Assembly (NCBI GenBank): GCA_048885865.1
Contig: JBHLLF010000011.1
Span: forward strand, 18,920 to 82,919
Direction of reading: 5' to 3'
DNA: 64,000 nt
DNA from: Candidatus Hermodarchaeota archaeon
GTDB lineage: Archaea; Asgardarchaeota; Thorarchaeia; Thorarchaeales; Thorarchaeaceae
In this document: positions 25,530 to 55,128 of the stretch, piece after piece
Numbering within the stretch: position 1 is the stretch's first letter
Layout: each line of letters starts with the position of its first letter
The notes under the pieces: model-generated
Seen by the model: only the letters and a program-made list of their open reading frames with translations
Databases searched by the model: none
What the model was told of the DNA's origin: nothing
Position numbers and translations under genes: made by a program

Positions 25530-26147
25530 TTGAGAATGAGTGATTCCCGGTGGACACGCTGGTATAAGGCAGTCCTCATAGGCGACGGAGCCGTCGGGAA
25601 GACAAGTCTCAAGAGAAACTATCTCGGCGAGGACTTCATGGAAGGTCACCTTCCTACAATTGGAGTTGACTTCGCTCAGAAGTCAATCGATTATGAAACT
25701 GGCACGGTGAAGTTTATCATCTGGGACCTTGCGGGCCAGCCCTCCTTTGAAAGGGTGCGTCGTCACTACTATCAGGGAGCTAATGGGATATTTCTTGTCT
25801 ATTCCGTGATAAATAGAAAATCATTCGACAATGCAACGAAGTGGCTTGTTGAAGCCTACAGATACATGGGGAGCTTGCCTCCGACCATTGTGATTGCCAA
25901 CAAGATTGATCTCCGGCCCGAAGAGCATGACGATTCAATGATTTCCACAGAGGAGGGGATAAGATTCGCGAACTTCTACAGCGAGAGGATGGAAGTTCCA
26001 ACATCATTCAGAGAGACCTCAGCTCTTACTGGCGAAGGAGTGCAGGATGCTTTCAGCGAGCTGATCAGCCTAATGAGTGAAACCGGAGAGGTCAATATTC
26101 CTGAACGTGCAGAAGTTCGTAGTGGTGGAACTGAGAGCAAAATCTAA
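25530..26147 (+). CDS. Rab-like small GTPase (Ras superfamily)
   Basis: GDGAVGKT, TIGVDF, WDLAGQ, NKID, SAL. Confidence 0.93.
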   Translation: MRMSDSRWTRWYKAVLIGDGAVGKTSLKRNYLGEDFMEGHLPTIGVDFAQKSIDYETGTVKFIIWDLAGQPSFERVRRHYYQGANGIFLVYSVINRKSFDNATKWLVEAYRYMGSLPPTIVIANKIDLRPEEHDDSMISTEEGIRFANFYSERMEVPTSFRETSALTGEGVQDAFSELISLMSETGEVNIPERAEVRSGGTESKI

Positions 26148-26286: not shown

Positions 26287-26874
26287 TTGCGAGACCAAGA
26301 TAATGGAAGCCTAATCTATAAAGCAGTTTTAATCGGCGACGGGGCAGTTGGGAAGACGTCCATACGACGCAATTATCTTGGAGAAGATTTCATTGAGGGT
26401 CACCTCGCAACAATAGGAGTTGACCTCGCAACCAAGAAGGTATTATTTGGCGAAAACGTCGTGAAATTCATCATCTGGGACTTGGCAGGTCAACCAACAT
26501 TCGAGAAGGTCCGAGGGCATTATTATCATGGATGCAACGGAATCGTCCTTGTATATTCAGTGGTTGATCGAGACTCTTTTGACAATGCTTCCAAGTGGTT
26601 GGTTGAAGCGTTCAAGAATATGGGCCCCCTGCCTCCAACAGTTATTGTTGGGAATAAGATTGACCTCCGACCTTTGCGGCAAGCAGACAAGATAGTGACC
26701 ACTGAGGAAGGCAAGAAGTTCATGCAGTACTTCATTGAGAAACTTGGAGTTCCCGCCATCTTTAGAGAAACCAGTGCAAAGACAGGCGAGAACATCCTTG
26801 ATACATTCGAGGAACTTCTTCGCATGATGGCTGAAGCAGAAGCTGGCAAAGAGTCTGACAAATTCGTTGGCTGA
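26287..26874 (+). CDS. Rab-like small GTPase, tandem paralog
   Basis: GDGAVGKT, TIGVD, WDLAGQ, NKID, SAK. Confidence 0.93.
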   Translation: MRDQDNGSLIYKAVLIGDGAVGKTSIRRNYLGEDFIEGHLATIGVDLATKKVLFGENVVKFIIWDLAGQPTFEKVRGHYYHGCNGIVLVYSVVDRDSFDNASKWLVEAFKNMGPLPPTVIVGNKIDLRPLRQADKIVTTEEGKKFMQYFIEKLGVPAIFRETSAKTGENILDTFEELLRMMAEAEAGKESDKFVG

Positions 26875-50022: not shown

Positions 50023-51048
50023 ATGGCGGGTATGTATTCGAATCAGTCAAGCAGTTCAACCACAGTGATAGTGGTGGTGGTTGCAATTGCGGCAACACTG
50101 CTTCTTGCGAACAGTATGCTAGACCATCCAATTCTTCCGCTGCTTCCTCCGGGAATCGGAACGGTGACTACCACACCTACCACAACCATACGGCCTCCTC
50201 CTGAAAACTTGACGGCTCATGAACCCATAGTGATTATTGGTAATGAGGACTTTCAACACCAAGCTGATAATAATAACTGGTCTGGAGATGGGAGTGCAAG
50301 TAATCCTTACATCATCGAAGGCTATGTGATTGAGTCTTCTGAGATATGCATCAACATAATGTACACGACTCTCTACTTCGAGATTAGATATTGCTCATTC
50401 TCCTGCCCAGAGCCTGAGCCCTTTGGAGGTATGGGCGTGAACATATGGGAGGCAGATAATGGACTTGTGGACTCATGCACATTTCGAGAGATGGAGTGGG
50501 GTGTGAATCTCTTCATCACAGACAATTGCGATGTTAGGAGATGTGACATTGAAGCGGGATGGATTGGCGTAAATGTAAGCTACTCTAGTGTCACATTTGT
50601 GGCAGATAACACCATTCAAGGAGGAGATTATGCAGTCTTTGTTGACCAAAGTACGACATTTGCTGTGCTAGAGAATAATCTCTGTCTAACTAATTGTGGC
50701 CTTGCTGTGTGGGGGAGTACGGGAGGAGTCCTGCGACACAACAATGTTTCATACAATGATGCAGGTATCGAGGTTCTCGGGTCTAGTGAGGAAATAGCGT
50801 TTGAGACAAACTGGGTAATCCATAATTCAGGTATTGGAATAGATTTAGGGGTCGGTACCAGCTCCTGTCTCCTATTTGACAACCAGATTGGCTGGAACGG
50901 AGGTGGGAACGCACTGGACAACGGCCTTGAAAACTACTGGGATAACGGAGAAATAGGTAATGCATGGAGCGACTATGAAGGATCTGGGGTCTATGTGATA
51001 CCAGGAAGTGGAGAGAGCGTTGATAACTTCCCATCCCTTATAGTCTGA
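50023..51048 (+). CDS. NosD/beta-helix surface protein with an N-terminal anchor
   Basis: Hydrophobic N-terminus, Thr/Pro linker, WSGDGS..NPYIIEG, GNAWSDY.G.GVY.IPG...VD.FP; ATG 50023 preferred. Confidence 0.8.
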   Translation: MAGMYSNQSSSSTTVIVVVVAIAATLLLANSMLDHPILPLLPPGIGTVTTTPTTTIRPPPENLTAHEPIVIIGNEDFQHQADNNNWSGDGSASNPYIIEGYVIESSEICINIMYTTLYFEIRYCSFSCPEPEPFGGMGVNIWEADNGLVDSCTFREMEWGVNLFITDNCDVRRCDIEAGWIGVNVSYSSVTFVADNTIQGGDYAVFVDQSTTFAVLENNLCLTNCGLAVWGSTGGVLRHNNVSYNDAGIEVLGSSEEIAFETNWVIHNSGIGIDLGVGTSSCLLFDNQIGWNGGGNALDNGLENYWDNGEIGNAWSDYEGSGVYVIPGSGESVDNFPSLIV

Positions 51049-51176
51049 AAATATTCGCAAAATGCACTATACCAGCAAAATGGACAGAATCGCACATCCC
51101 AGTACATGAAAAAACTGAAACCGAAAAGCTTCATATGTCGCCTTTCCTATGAGCCCTCCTCAGAAGGGCCCAACCC

Positions 51177-51710
51177 ATGACACAGCATCGACTGTCTGCA
51201 GTCTATAAAACTGTATTAATCGGCGACGGGGGAGTGGGCAAGACTAGCATCGCCGTTAGATACACCGAGGACCGCTTTGATGAGCAAATGAAGATGACCA
51301 TCGGCGTCAACTTCGCCTCTAAGAAGGTAGAGATATCCGGCTCTGAGGTAACATTGCTTCTCTGGGATCTTGGGGGGCAACCTCGATTCCAGGATGTTGT
51401 CGACGGATACTTCCGAGGTTCAAAGATGGGCATTGCTGTTTATGAAGTGACTCGCCCATTCACACTCTATAGACTTGATGATTGGATTGGACGACTCCGT
51501 AATAACATTGAGGACTGCCCAATCATAATTGTGGGAAACAAGATTGACGAACGAGATGAAGGAGAGGGAGTATCAAAAGAGCAGGCGATGGAGTATGCAT
51601 CAAAATACAATGCGATAGTCTTCGAGGTTTCTGCAAAGACGGGAGAGGGAGTGCCCGAGCTCTTTGAGGCAGTGGCTCGACTTATTGCTAGAGCCTATGA
51701 AGAAGAGTGA
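51177..51710 (+). CDS. Rab-like small GTPase
   Basis: GDGGVGKT, TIGVNF, WDLGGQ, NKID, SAK. Confidence 0.93.
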   Translation: MTQHRLSAVYKTVLIGDGGVGKTSIAVRYTEDRFDEQMKMTIGVNFASKKVEISGSEVTLLLWDLGGQPRFQDVVDGYFRGSKMGIAVYEVTRPFTLYRLDDWIGRLRNNIEDCPIIIVGNKIDERDEGEGVSKEQAMEYASKYNAIVFEVSAKTGEGVPELFEAVARLIARAYEEE

Positions 51711-51801
51711 CTGATGTGTCAGAAATAGCGTTAAATGTTGGCATCACTGAAAGTGATGAGATGGCTTGTTTCGCCGTTTGAGCACGGGTGGTGATCTAGA
51801 G

Positions 51802-52062
51802 TTGGCTAATGTGACACTTAACCCATTTGCATGTCCGGCATGCTCGAAAGGCACTCTAGTGAAGGTCGAGGTTGAGGCGGCAACTATCACCGAGGCAAAG
51901 CGTCATCCTGTCATTGTCACAACACAATGCCCCAACGGTCATTCTATCGTTGTATTCGTAGACAAGAATTTCCAGGTCCGTGATGTCGAGGCCGTGGCTG
52001 GAGCAGCCAAGAAACAAGAAGATGCAGTCGACAAGACAAAGTCATGGTTTGATTCCTTGTAG
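51802..52062 (+). CDS. Small C3H zinc-ribbon protein
   Basis: CPAC...CPNGH..VVFVDKNF.VR; GGTGA RBS before TTG 51802. Confidence 0.75.
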   Translation: MANVTLNPFACPACSKGTLVKVEVEAATITEAKRHPVIVTTQCPNGHSIVVFVDKNFQVRDVEAVAGAAKKQEDAVDKTKSWFDSL

Positions 52063-52238
52063 TTTTTTGTACGCAATTTTGTGCTTCCCATTAAGGGATG
52101 AAATATTACCTGATATTACAACTTACGAGAAATGCTTATTACATGGCAATCGAGGCTTTGTTTAATAGATAGGCCATCTTCCGTATCTATTGCAAGAAAG
52201 GGATTTGCAGACGACTCAACGGATGGCGAGGCTCGGTA

Positions 52239-52685
52239 ATGTACGGTATCTTCGTGATCAATGACGCTGGGGAGACCATTGCGTCGATTGGCTGGGAGAA
52301 CCTAAAGGGTGACTCATCACTCTTCGGAGGGTTTCTCTCTGCGGTTCAAATGTTCATCAAGAAGATATCAGGTACTGAAATCGAAGAGCTGCGCTTTGGA
52401 GACCTGAAGCTTCTAGTGGGTCATGCAGGTACAGATTATGTTGTAACTCTTCATGCACTTGACGACCAAAAAGCAGAGGACCACAATCGCGAGGTTGTTA
52501 AGCTTGTTAACGAAAGCTCGGACATTCGAATAGATGACGGCTTTCTGGAACTTGTCAATGAAATGGTAATGACGGAGAGCCAGGAAGATGCGGAGAAGGT
52601 TCGTAGCGGTCTGAGGGCATGGACAAGCGGCGAACTCGATGAGGCAAAGAAAGCCGCAAGTGAGTGGGGCAAGAAGGTGTTCTAA
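52239..52685 (+). CDS. Longin/roadblock-like domain protein
   Basis: GIFVINDAGETI, helix LFGGFLSAVQMFIKK, IEELRFGDLKLLV: beta-beta-alpha-beta-beta-beta-alpha pattern. Confidence 0.7.
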   Translation: MYGIFVINDAGETIASIGWENLKGDSSLFGGFLSAVQMFIKKISGTEIEELRFGDLKLLVGHAGTDYVVTLHALDDQKAEDHNREVVKLVNESSDIRIDDGFLELVNEMVMTESQEDAEKVRSGLRAWTSGELDEAKKAASEWGKKVF

Positions 52686-54152
52686 ATGGAAACTTACGAA
52701 GTAGCTCAGTTCTTCATTGCATTAGCAACACTGGTCGCAGCAGGGACAATTATCACCTATAGCTTGAGAAGGTCATCCCAAGCTGATGCGGAAACCAAAC
52801 GTGCCTTCAGACCTCTGTATTTGTTTGCATTAGCAATGCTAGTTTATGCAGTTGGAACATTCATTACTTTCCAAGAGGCAGCAACAGGGAGGTCGTTTCT
52901 AGTTGACTTTCTTGCGGACTACCGTGGTATTTACGAACATTTCCTGGATTATCTTGTCTTCCCATACTATACCTTATTTGTTATTCTGATAGTTGAAGTC
53001 GTCATTCTTGCCATTGCCGCTTCAATGATTACTAGACGGGGATACCTTGGGTTAGTAATTGTTGTCATAGCGCTTATCAGCATTATACTTCTCTTCCAGT
53101 CAATCGATCTTGTGTTCATATTCAGAGTGAGCAATCGTGCAGACTTCCTATTTAGCATGGGATCTCTGTTGAGGTCAGCAATTCTTCTTGTTGTTGCCAT
53201 CATATTTGTCTGGATTGCCTATGATACCAGAAGAGGAACGGCTGCGGCAATGTCCTTTGCGCTCGTTATGCAGCTTCTCAATCTCCCAGATCTATATGGC
53301 GAGGGATTTGCTGGCTTTGCACTTCCAATCTATGGAACATATGTAATCGTCTTCATGGCGCTAATGGGACCGGCTATGCTGGCATTTACATTTCTTAGGC
53401 CCGAACAAGAAATGACTGGTGAGCTTGTAGGATATGGAGCTAGCTTTGCAGGACCTGCGTTGGTGATTTCTGGAGTATATGCACAAGGTCTTCTAGGGGA
53501 CATCGTGCTTACAAGTATCGTACTTGTTGGGTCATTTGCGATAATGCTAGCGGCTGGTACTGCGGCATATCTATATGGCAGATGGAGGGAAACCAAACAG
53601 CTGCCAACATTTCTTATGCTAATTGCCTTTGCACTATTTGCTTTTGGGCAGTTGTCTGGCATGTTGGGAAATACCAATAATCTACCGACCACAGAAGCTA
53701 TTTACTTCGAAATTCTGTCCCTCGGATTAGCCTTGACTCTGCTATCAACCACGTCGATATTCGCTGCTGGATATAGAAGTGCTGGTCTATTACCGTTCCT
53801 GTTCTATTTGCCAGTCGCTATCCTTATTGTCCAAGGTTTTCCTGCACCCATAGAAACGACTTTCTTGGAATTAATCTGGTTTGTAATCCCGCTACTAATT
53901 ATGTTTCTCCTTCCAGTGATTCTTTTCGGTAATGTCTGGCGCAGAATGAAGAAACAGAATCAACCAGGCAGACTCAGACCCCTGGGTATCGCGCTGGGAA
54001 TCTTGCTTTTCCTTGTGATCAGAATCCCCATCCTATTGATTGGTATTCTAGGACTTGACCCTGGATATGCGCTGGTCACCGTCAGTTATTTTGTGTCATG
54101 GATGGCACTAACAGGAAGGTTGGATAGAACTCTTGGCATGAGAGGCTTCTAA
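52686..54152 (+). CDS. Polytopic membrane protein (about 15 TM; apparent 7TM duplication)
   Basis: About 15 hydrophobic segments; ATG directly after the longin gene stop. Confidence 0.8.
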   Translation: METYEVAQFFIALATLVAAGTIITYSLRRSSQADAETKRAFRPLYLFALAMLVYAVGTFITFQEAATGRSFLVDFLADYRGIYEHFLDYLVFPYYTLFVILIVEVVILAIAASMITRRGYLGLVIVVIALISIILLFQSIDLVFIFRVSNRADFLFSMGSLLRSAILLVVAIIFVWIAYDTRRGTAAAMSFALVMQLLNLPDLYGEGFAGFALPIYGTYVIVFMALMGPAMLAFTFLRPEQEMTGELVGYGASFAGPALVISGVYAQGLLGDIVLTSIVLVGSFAIMLAAGTAAYLYGRWRETKQLPTFLMLIAFALFAFGQLSGMLGNTNNLPTTEAIYFEILSLGLALTLLSTTSIFAAGYRSAGLLPFLFYLPVAILIVQGFPAPIETTFLELIWFVIPLLIMFLLPVILFGNVWRRMKKQNQPGRLRPLGIALGILLFLVIRIPILLIGILGLDPGYALVTVSYFVSWMALTGRLDRTLGMRGF

Positions 54153-54243
54153 GAATAAATAACTGAGTTCCGCATCCATTCCTCTTTTATTGGTCCGGCT
54201 AGATGCTCCGCTGAATACAGCTATTAATGGTCTAGTGAAGCAA

Positions 54244-55128
54244 ATGAGAATTGGCTATGCCTGCATTAACATGTCCATCGGATGCTCCAGCGCAAGGACA
54301 TTCAGGCTTAAGTCGTATACAGAACCTCGCCTCATTGCAACAATTCAGGAAAATCTGCAATGCCTCAGGAGAATCATCAGATTCAATTTAGAGAATAATA
54401 TCCTGTTCTTTAGAATAACCTCTGATCTGATCCCATTTGCGAGTCATCCCATTATGAAGGTTGATTGGAAATCTCTATTCTCGGATGAACTCTCAGAGAT
54501 AGGAGAACTGGCTGTTTCAGCAGGTATGAGACTGTCGATGCATCCCGGTCAGTACACTGTTTTGAATTCCACAAGTGATTCAGTTTACAGGAATGCGCTG
54601 GCAGACCTTCAATATCATTGTGACATACTTGACCTGATGAATCTGGGTCCAGATGCAAAGGTTCAGATCCACATTGGAGGAGTCTATGGGGATAAGGAGG
54701 CATCACTCCAGCGTTTTGCTGAGCGATATGACCTTCTGGACAAGACCATCTCTCGCAGGTTGGTAGTTGAGAATGATGACCACAGCTATACGCAGAAAGA
54801 CTGTATGTTTCTTAGCGAGTTGACAGGGATTCCCGTCGTCTTCGATAATTTGCATCATGATGTCCTCAACCATGGCGAATCCATAAGGGATAGCTTGAAG
54901 CGAAGCGCCGCAACCTGGACAAAACGCGAAGGTCCGCCCATCGTGCATTACAGTTCGCAGAGTCCTACTGGTCGTCCTGGGAAACATGCAGCTACTCTGG
55001 ACACTAATGACTTCGCAGATTTCCTTCAACGAACAAGGGACATTGGATATGACCTCATGATCGAGATAAAGGACAAGGACATTTCTGCTCTCAAAGCCCT
55101 AAGAATACTCGACAGAATCCACGCCTAG
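54244..55128 (+). CDS. uvsE: UV damage endonuclease
   Basis: MRIGYAC, FFRI.S..IPFASHP, RLSMHPGQY.VLNS, HIGG.YG, VENDD, FD..HH, HYS, H, E.KDKD. Confidence 0.95.
   Translation: MRIGYACINMSIGCSSARTFRLKSYTEPRLIATIQENLQCLRRIIRFNLENNILFFRITSDLIPFASHPIMKVDWKSLFSDELSEIGELAVSAGMRLSMHPGQYTVLNSTSDSVYRNALADLQYHCDILDLMNLGPDAKVQIHIGGVYGDKEASLQRFAERYDLLDKTISRRLVVENDDHSYTQKDCMFLSELTGIPVVFDNLHHDVLNHGESIRDSLKRSAATWTKREGPPIVHYSSQSPTGRPGKHAATLDTNDFADFLQRTRDIGYDLMIEIKDKDISALKALRILDRIHA

Follow-up and report, generated by a model that had tools for sequence, protein, structure and literature searches.

A conserved Asgard gene set of a Rab-like GTPase, a zinc-ribbon-like protein, a longin-fold protein and a double-7TM membrane protein

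The Mon1-Ccz1, FLCN-FNIP and GATOR1 complexes are longin-containing guanine nucleotide exchange factors (GEFs) and GTPase-activating proteins (GAPs) for small GTPases, and in bacteria MglA, a GTPase resembling Ras, is paired with MglB, a GAP of the roadblock type. LYCHOS, a polytopic protein resembling G protein-coupled receptors (GPCRs), signals to GATOR1, the longin-containing GAP for the Rag GTPases; Protein Data Bank (PDB) titles name it the mTORC1 cholesterol sensor. Here we compare these systems with a four-gene locus from an Asgard archaeon. It lies in a stretch of 64,000 nucleotides (the window) from Candidatus Hermodarchaeota archaeon, a member of the Thorarchaeaceae (assembly GCA_048885865.1, contig JBHLLF010000011.1, positions 18,920 to 82,919 of the forward strand), and encodes a Rab/Ras-like small GTPase, a zinc-ribbon-like protein, a longin-fold protein and a polytopic membrane protein with two predicted seven-transmembrane (7TM) bundles. 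The set is real and conserved, and we came across no description of it. Within the GTPase-longin theme it forms a variant with an unexpected partner, a GPCR-like double-7TM membrane protein.

An Asgard operon of a LAMTOR1-like roadblock protein, a Rab-like GTPase and a DENN protein has been reported (Liu et al., preprint 10.1101/2020.10.19.343400). Like our locus, that operon is an Asgard neighbourhood in which the genes of a Rab-like GTPase and of a roadblock/longin-superfamily protein are kept together, but our locus has a zinc-ribbon protein and a double-7TM protein in place of DENN; in the available portions of that article we found no passage with the words 7TM, transmembrane, membrane protein or GPCR. 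As far as the accessible text of Tran et al. 2024 (PMC10933270) goes, structures of Thor-Rab and of roadblock proteins have been reported, and the GTPase genes of MK-D1 generally lie outside operons with roadblock, longin or TRAPPC3 genes, so that the pairing of GTPases with GAPs and GEFs is hard to predict from genome layout. The available portions of Eme et al. (PMC10307638) and of PMC11291895 do not mention this gene set, and those of PMC13466386 treat the origins of GPCRs with no Asgard receptors among them. A structural cluster of Asgard and eukaryote proteins called "class C GPCR", which might or might not correspond to the membrane family treated here, is named without detail in the accessible part of a 2026 preprint (10.64898/2026.10.28.762692). 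In the literature on Asgard longin/GTPase neighbourhoods, GPCR/7TM proteins, operons and Thorarchaeota, available mostly as titles and abstracts, we found no published description of the set, and we found no paper at all that joins Asgard archaea and LYCHOS.

Layout, linkage and distribution of the four genes

The features of the locus are as follows (aa, amino acids; TM, transmembrane helix).

51177..51710, + strand: Rab/Ras-like small GTPase, 177 aa, with Pfam Ras match and motifs G1 to G5
51802..52062, + strand: zinc-ribbon-like protein, 86 aa; reading frame open from 51766
52113..52170 (limits approximate), + strand: intergenic block with the TATA-like sequence TTTAATAG (52161-52168), from an alignment of seven loci
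52239..52685, + strand: longin-fold protein, 148 aa, core at residues 1-115
52686..54152, + strand: polytopic membrane protein, 488 aa, 15 predicted TM helices
52692..53396, + strand: N-terminal 7TM repeat of the membrane protein, TM1-7, aa 3-237, from hhalign against the C half
53418..53483, + strand: linker helix TM8, aa 245-266, from the helix list of the model, the topology count and the repeat alignment
53502..54110, + strand: C-terminal 7TM repeat, TM9-15, aa 273-475, GPCR-like fold by superposition

The four open reading frames (ORFs) lie on the plus strand where a sequence-only reading of the window had placed them. Counted from its first TTG, the second ORF (51766-52062) would encode 98 aa; the start common to 20 aligned homologues is the TTG at 51802, which gives 86 aa. 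As that reading also noted, the stop codon of the longin gene directly abuts the start of the membrane gene (TAA then ATG, 52683-52688).

Three paralogous four-gene sets are present in the archaeon's own genome. The window copy (C11) and a second copy (C22) share the same gene order; in the third (C6) the order is zinc ribbon, longin, membrane protein, GTPase, with genes that abut or overlap and the GTPase at the far end. We also compared 24 related loci from other genomes, three of which (L010, L020 and L024) are uninformative, their sequence starting at or inside the membrane gene. The order zinc ribbon, longin, membrane protein is kept in 21 of the 21 informative loci, always with the zinc-ribbon gene directly upstream of the longin gene and a GTPase gene no more than about 0.8 kb away. 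In 18 loci that GTPase gene lies upstream; in L027, where it is on the opposite strand, and in L029 it lies downstream, and L028 has one on either side. In 21 of 24 sets the end of the longin gene and the start of the membrane gene are separated by at most 12 nucleotides or overlap. Conservation of the neighbourhood had been proposed as a check on the initial reading, and the four-gene set is indeed kept in metagenome-assembled genomes (MAGs) labelled Thorarchaeota and in two further Asgard lineages, Atabeyarchaeum (L028) and LC30 (L029), at 27-31% identity.

By comparison, no other gene cluster is common to more than eight of the 27 compared loci: the flanking genes, for a beta-helix/NosD-like protein, a DUF362 protein and UvdE, each occur in five to eight of them. 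Trees of the four genes recover the same main clades. We conclude that the four genes have been inherited, duplicated and rearranged as one block, more than chance would give.

Could the genes nevertheless be neighbours by inherited synteny only, with no joint function? A likely promoter inside the window copy (below) would fit such an explanation. However, the linkage survives in three paralogues, through a change of gene order and through divergence to 25-30% identity while the other flanking genes change; the gene trees are congruent, and fusions of longin and GTPase domains exist elsewhere (below). We regard mere synteny as very improbable.

Transcription of the window copy need not be continuous. 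The sequence-only reading had pointed out a T-run after 52062 and a TATA-like box before the longin gene, and both are present: the T-run reads TAGTTTTTTG, and the TATA-like TTTAATAG occupies 52161-52168 within an intergenic block (about 52113-52170) that is conserved in seven related loci, including L009 and L017, whose flanking intergenic DNA has diverged. Because this TATA-like block is conserved, the longin and membrane genes of the window copy probably have a promoter of their own, and in this copy the earlier suggestion of several transcription units probably holds. Conservation of the block extends beyond the TATA-like box: AACTTACGAGAAAYGCTTATTA is invariant or nearly so in the seven loci and may be a regulator binding site. 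Rfam gave no match over 50900-54400, and the sequencing runs that we found are DNA from sediment and mangrove metagenomes, with no RNA sequencing among them.

The C22 copy has neighbours of its own. It is preceded by a gene for a 268-aa HTH_20 protein (L004:4793-5599, +) whose stop overlaps the GTPase start, and a divergently transcribed gene on the same contig (L004:1990-4704, -) encodes a 904-aa protein with the same HTH N-terminus and several PAS domains. Both proteins are conserved in seven loci of the C22 subtype, a hint that this paralogue may be linked to sensing.

The family of the membrane protein occurs in 49 of 400 Asgard genomes: in 43 of 85 genomes of group f1, in two of three of f4, in three of 19 of f14 and in none of the rest (f22, 0 of 135). 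The profiles of two of its partners are less confined. The longin profile matches 278 of the 400 genomes; it reaches into the wider longin superfamily and hence does not mark the module. With the zinc-ribbon profile the count at 1e-8 is 88 of the 400, a shorter paralogue family included.

The GTPase, the longin-fold protein and the zinc-ribbon-like protein

The first gene had been read as a GTPase with all of the motifs G1 to G5, and both its translation and its Pfam match bear this out. The window protein matches Pfam Ras (PF00071) with an E value of 2.8e-42 (144.5 bits, cut-off 21.6) and carries G1 GDGGVGKT, the switch-I threonine T41, G3 DLGGQ with catalytic Gln68, G4 NKID and G5 SAK. Across 23 module GTPases, residues G18-T23, T41, D64-Q68, N121, K122, D124, S152 and A153 do not vary, and K154 is conserved in at least 90%. 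Its closest PDB match is Thor-Rab (7EZB, 8.6e-36), followed by Rab18, Sec4, Rab35 and Rab14. It is like Thor-Rab and the eukaryotic Rabs, then, in being closest to them in sequence, in its complete G motifs and in its catalytic Gln within DxxGQ.

The module GTPases differ from these Rabs in other respects. Among 19 examined no C-terminal Cys is conserved, and the window protein, which has none, ends ARAYEEE. Judged from their sequences, the module GTPases have neither a conserved C-terminal Cys for Rab-type geranylgeranylation nor a lipid-anchor motif. A Met occupies the position aligned with Thor-Rab Arg37, a residue that, in the available text of PMC10933270, is a possible intrinsic finger; the GTPase likewise lacks, unlike MglA, the MglA-type intrinsic Arg at the aligned switch-I position. 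The module proteins also form a separate, module-linked clade. The archaeon's own genome has 36 Ras-family matches, and in a tree of 30 of its Ras-family domains the three module GTPases are one clade (SH-aLRT 95). Two more Ras-family GTPase genes lie in tandem on the plus strand of the window, at 25566-26075 and 26320-26829 (C11:44485-44994 and C11:45239-45748); their products group with C18_61519 and C21_2298, outside the module clade.

The protein encoded at 52239 had been guessed to be of longin or roadblock type. We built an AlphaFold2 (AF2) model of it from 32 sequences (predicted local distance difference test, pLDDT, 70). Its secondary structure runs bb-a-bbb-aa (E3-7, E13-17, H26-42, E48-53, E56-63, E66-73, H79-92, H100-110), followed by two helices that end in the invariant Trp143. 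In VIA-align the model superposes on Sec22b (Z score 12.5, root-mean-square deviation [rmsd] 2.8, 110 residues), VAMP7 (11.8), AP sigma (11.2) and Ykt6 (10.4). Zeta-COP and TRAPPC4 likewise rank above MglB and LAMTOR, and the MglB and LAMTOR/roadblock chains reach Z 9.3-9.8 while covering residues 1-97 only. Foldseek gave 17 matches at E of 1e-3 or below; among the matches listed, all are longin or roadblock proteins. Both the order of strands and helices in the model and its superposition on solved longins indicate a longin fold, so that the longin half of the guess stands. The roadblock half does not: the model opens with a strand at residue 3 and has no N-terminal helix, the feature with which a roadblock domain begins, and Robl_LC7 was matched by one of 32 family members at E 0.0021. 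We therefore rejected the roadblock/LC7 fold of the MglB type.

The module longin is like Sec22b, VAMP7, Ykt6, AP sigma, zeta-COP and TRAPPC4 in fold and strand order (Z 10-12.5 over about 110 residues), and like the longin GEF and GAP platforms Mon1-Ccz1, FLCN-FNIP and GATOR1 in its genetic link to a small GTPase. It differs from known longins in being a stand-alone protein of 148 aa that lies below Pfam thresholds and has a Trp tail of its own, no invariant Arg and a polytopic membrane partner. In MglA-MglB, too, a prokaryotic small-GTPase gene sits next to one for a small roadblock/longin-superfamily protein (MglB matches at Z 9.8 over 94 residues), but the module adds two further partners, the zinc ribbon and the double-7TM protein.

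The most conserved stretch of the longin is helix alpha1 (D25, G30, G31, F32, S34, A35, Q37), and the 32-sequence alignment contains no invariant Arg. Searching PDB sequences with the longin profile gave nothing usable (best E 0.41). Its homologues are annotated only as hypothetical; those with named sources come mostly from Thorarchaeota-labelled MAGs, some from Promethearchaeota or Hodarchaeota.

Longins joined to other domains occur in other Asgard genomes. We examined six longer ORFs whose N-termini match the module longin profile (E 1e-14 to 1e-16). A small-GTPase domain forms the C-terminus of three (Pfam Ras at 2.1e-45, Arf at 3.1e-19 and 1.1e-23), a fourth has the zinc-ribbon-rich TackOD1, and two have no Pfam family. 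By analogy, the longin-GTPase fusions lend indirect support to a physical coupling of the module parts. The TackOD1 protein (L036:823-1956, +) is 377 aa long, with an N-terminal longin-like domain (E 1.3e-15) and a TackOD1 output domain (Pfam 2.1e-31). Another longin paralogue of Thorarchaeota type (E about 1e-29 against the module longin profile) lies in a different conserved set in three of four loci (L030:4755-6617, L031:4764-7947, L032:4976-8173), where genes for a 305-309-aa protein and for a 129-143-aa protein that looks roadblock-like by eye precede that of the longin; in two of these three loci the longin is followed by a membrane protein of 423-430 aa, and the fourth locus, L033, has no such set. 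This may be a second longin-membrane module.

In the zinc-ribbon-like protein, C11, C14, C43 and H47 are invariant in 21 aligned sequences, giving the pattern CPxC...Cx3H. The CxxC pair of the sequence-only reading is thereby retained; its CxxH pair is instead C-x3-H (CPNGH). Two conserved pairs of metal ligands, as in zinc ribbons, would form a putative metal site. W82 is nearly invariant and sits in a conserved C-terminal tail, DKTKxWFxSL. Neither Pfam nor NCBIfam has a family for this protein, and its profile found nothing usable in the PDB (best E 0.005, an 11-residue C2H2-like stretch only). In the ESM Atlas the nearest clusters of both the zinc-ribbon and the membrane proteins are unnamed archaeal ones; the Atlas labels HisKA_7TM (0.85) and DUF1062 (0.83) were rejected, as they fall below the tool's trust level. 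A distant relative forms the first 70 or so residues of a 286-aa protein whose gene lies directly 3' of that for a 171-aa Ras-family GTPase in the archaeon's own genome (C27:31595-33103, -), and elsewhere a GTPase gene lies near distant relatives in three of ten sampled loci.

The two soluble proteins have similar conserved Trp tails at their C-termini (52060 and 52683): DKTKxWFxSL in the zinc-ribbon-like protein, and xEWGKKVF or xDWASKML in the longin. The longin tail is modelled at pLDDT below 50.

The membrane protein

The AF2 model of the membrane protein, built from 42 sequences, has 15 membrane helices (pLDDT 91; predicted template modelling score, pTM, 0.88). We compared it with 48,161 PDB representatives. 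In all of the 50 best rows listed, residues of about 266-482 align to GPCR or designed GPCR-like folds, with Z 10.0-14.9: ADGRL3 reaches 14.9 (rmsd 3.9, 205 residues), two designed GPCR-like folds score 14.5 and 13.9, and values for class C receptors run from 12 to 13.5. In a second structural comparison the C half matched NTSR1 at Z 12.3 and the rhodopsin KR2 at 10.6. The C half of the model thus shares a GPCR-like 7TM fold; we claim fold, not homology.

Does the N half share it too? Using 108 full-length homologues, hhalign paired aa 1-242 with aa 268-488, TM1-7 against TM9-15, with probability 94.4 and E 8.7e-8; a reversed control gave E 0.47 and ten column shuffles gave E of 0.29 or higher. 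With a shallower alignment of 42 sequences the repeat signal was absent (probability 0.2, E 0.33). The N half is, then, a diverged repeat of the C half, which makes the layout 7+1+7, with two 7TM units in parallel and, joining them, a linker helix, TM8, owing to which both repeats keep the same orientation. For the N half, a 7TM fold is suggested by this repeat alignment only. The guess of a double-7TM protein accordingly held for its two bundles, which emerge from the model and the profile comparison, but not for its helix count, which is 15 rather than 14.

Likeness to class C and adhesion GPCRs lies in the superposition of the C half (Z up to 14.9, about 200 of 215 residues) and in a predicted N-out/C-in topology. 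Class C GPCRs are obligate dimers, and the two 7TM units side by side recall them. Unlike GPCRs, the membrane protein shows neither sequence similarity to them nor a Pfam 7tm match, carries two bundles in one chain, and belongs to a set that does not include heterotrimeric G proteins. Pfam and NCBIfam (E of 0.1 or below) offer no family for it, 7tm_1, 7tm_2 and 7tm_3 included. Among 1.84 billion proteins we found 63 representative relatives, and a profile search returned its own small family only. No relative exceeds 502 aa, and hence no fused forms were found.

Foldseek gave no PDB match to the model at E of 1e-3 or below. Its top row, LYCHOS, is weak (E 0.011, template modelling [TM] score 0.23), and structural alignment gave Z 10.4 at an rmsd of 14.2. 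We rejected LYCHOS as a structural relative. The LYCHOS/GPR155 architecture was likewise not found: the N half of the membrane protein is homologous to, and repeats, the C half instead of being a PIN-like transporter domain, and no cytosolic domain, such as the DEP domain of LYCHOS, follows TM15. Microbial rhodopsins bind retinal through a Lys in the seventh helix; such a rhodopsin was also rejected, as neither TM7 nor TM15 of the window protein contains a Lys and KR2 reaches no more than Z 10.6.

Could the protein instead act as a transporter or channel whose activity is regulated or reported by the GTPase, longin and zinc ribbon (a "transceptor")? SWEET sugar transporters have a 3+1+3 layout, and two parallel repeats with a linker helix recall it. 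The short extracellular loops and the conserved polar residues within helices (E104, Q196, Y340) would suit such a role, and the weak Foldseek rows include MATE, MurJ and LYCHOS with its transporter-like domain. Coupling between transporters and GTPases also has precedents in SLC38A9 with Ragulator and Rag, and in FeoB. However, the rows of MATE/MurJ type have E values of 0.18 or worse and TM scores of 0.11-0.19, the sole consistent structural match is to GPCR-type 7TM bundles, and no Pfam or NCBIfam family is reported for the protein. We consider a transporter unlikely.

The positive-inside rule predicts the N-out/C-in topology: Lys and Arg make up 13 of 50 residues in inside loops vs three of 70 in outside loops. 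Inside loops are also the better conserved (2.78 bits vs 1.82 bits outside), and conserved TM residues lie mostly near the cytoplasmic ends of helices. Such a concentration of conservation at the cytoplasmic face would also be in keeping with the module being a membrane landmark in trafficking, polarity or remodelling, at which the longin and zinc ribbon recruit the GTPase toward effectors of cytoskeletal or ESCRT type and no signal is sensed. The top matches of the longin are trafficking longins (Sec22b, VAMP7, AP sigma, zeta-COP, TRAPPC4), those of the GTPase are Rabs, and the accessible text of PMC10933270 argues that the GTPase, roadblock and longin parts of Asgard archaea serve membrane regulation. 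Yet no effector gene travels with the module, and the position of the C22-type copy (seven loci) beside an HTH protein and a divergent HTH-PAS sensor suggests signalling, not trafficking. A pure landmark seems to us distinctly unlikely.

Possible function of the gene set

We lean slightly towards reading the four genes as one membrane-anchored module for control of a small GTPase. The double-7TM protein would serve it as a platform at the membrane and might also sense a membrane cue or a small molecule, with the conserved cytoplasmic face serving for docking. As there are two similar Trp tails and two similar 7TM halves, each half may offer one docking site: the longin and the zinc-ribbon protein may dock on the cytoplasmic face through these tails, perhaps one on each half. 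The longin, whose alpha1 is its most conserved part, could bind the dedicated GTPase and set its nucleotide state or its membrane location. Since the longin has no invariant Arg and the GTPase has a Met at the position of Thor-Rab Arg37, a role as exchange factor or recruiter is probably likelier than one as arginine-finger GAP. We found no ligand site, GEF residue or GAP residue in the module proteins.

A receptor may act on the GTPase by way of a GEF or GAP, as the sequence-only reading had proposed. In its most specific form the double-7TM protein would be a prokaryotic, single-chain, pseudo-dimeric GPCR-like receptor that relays a cue through a longin exchange factor and the zinc ribbon to the Rab-like GTPase. 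This full version we think doubtful.

Several observations weigh against one GPCR-like control module. The probable promoter before the longin gene and the T-run after the zinc-ribbon gene mean that the four genes need not be one transcript. Concordance of the gene trees has an exception in L005, whose GTPase groups with the C22-type clade while its three partners branch deep, and seven of the ten sampled loci of distant zinc-ribbon relatives have no GTPase nearby. The longin family reaches no Pfam longin threshold, and the window protein has no Pfam match; Fuz_longin_1 was matched by five of 32 family members (best E 0.056), amid other families at chance level. Likeness to GPCRs is confined to the fold, at 6-14% identity, and the structure tool itself notes that the arrangement of helices is enough to bring helical models to Z of about 14. 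Finally, the extracellular loops are short and variable, and hence nothing points to a ligand or to a classical ligand-binding ectodomain.

Asgard genomes hold dozens of small GTPases and of longin and roadblock proteins, whose partnerships are mostly unknown. The module offers a rare matched set among them, in which one GTPase clade goes with a single longin, a single zinc-ribbon protein and a single membrane partner, all small enough to express. Its three diverged paralogues per genome provide built-in specificity controls. If the membrane protein is a receptor, it would place 7TM-to-GTPase coupling in archaea; and if the full relay from receptor through longin and zinc ribbon to GTPase is true, archaeal 7TM-to-GTPase signalling would be parallel or ancestral to the logic of LYCHOS-GATOR1-Rag or of GPCRs and G proteins.

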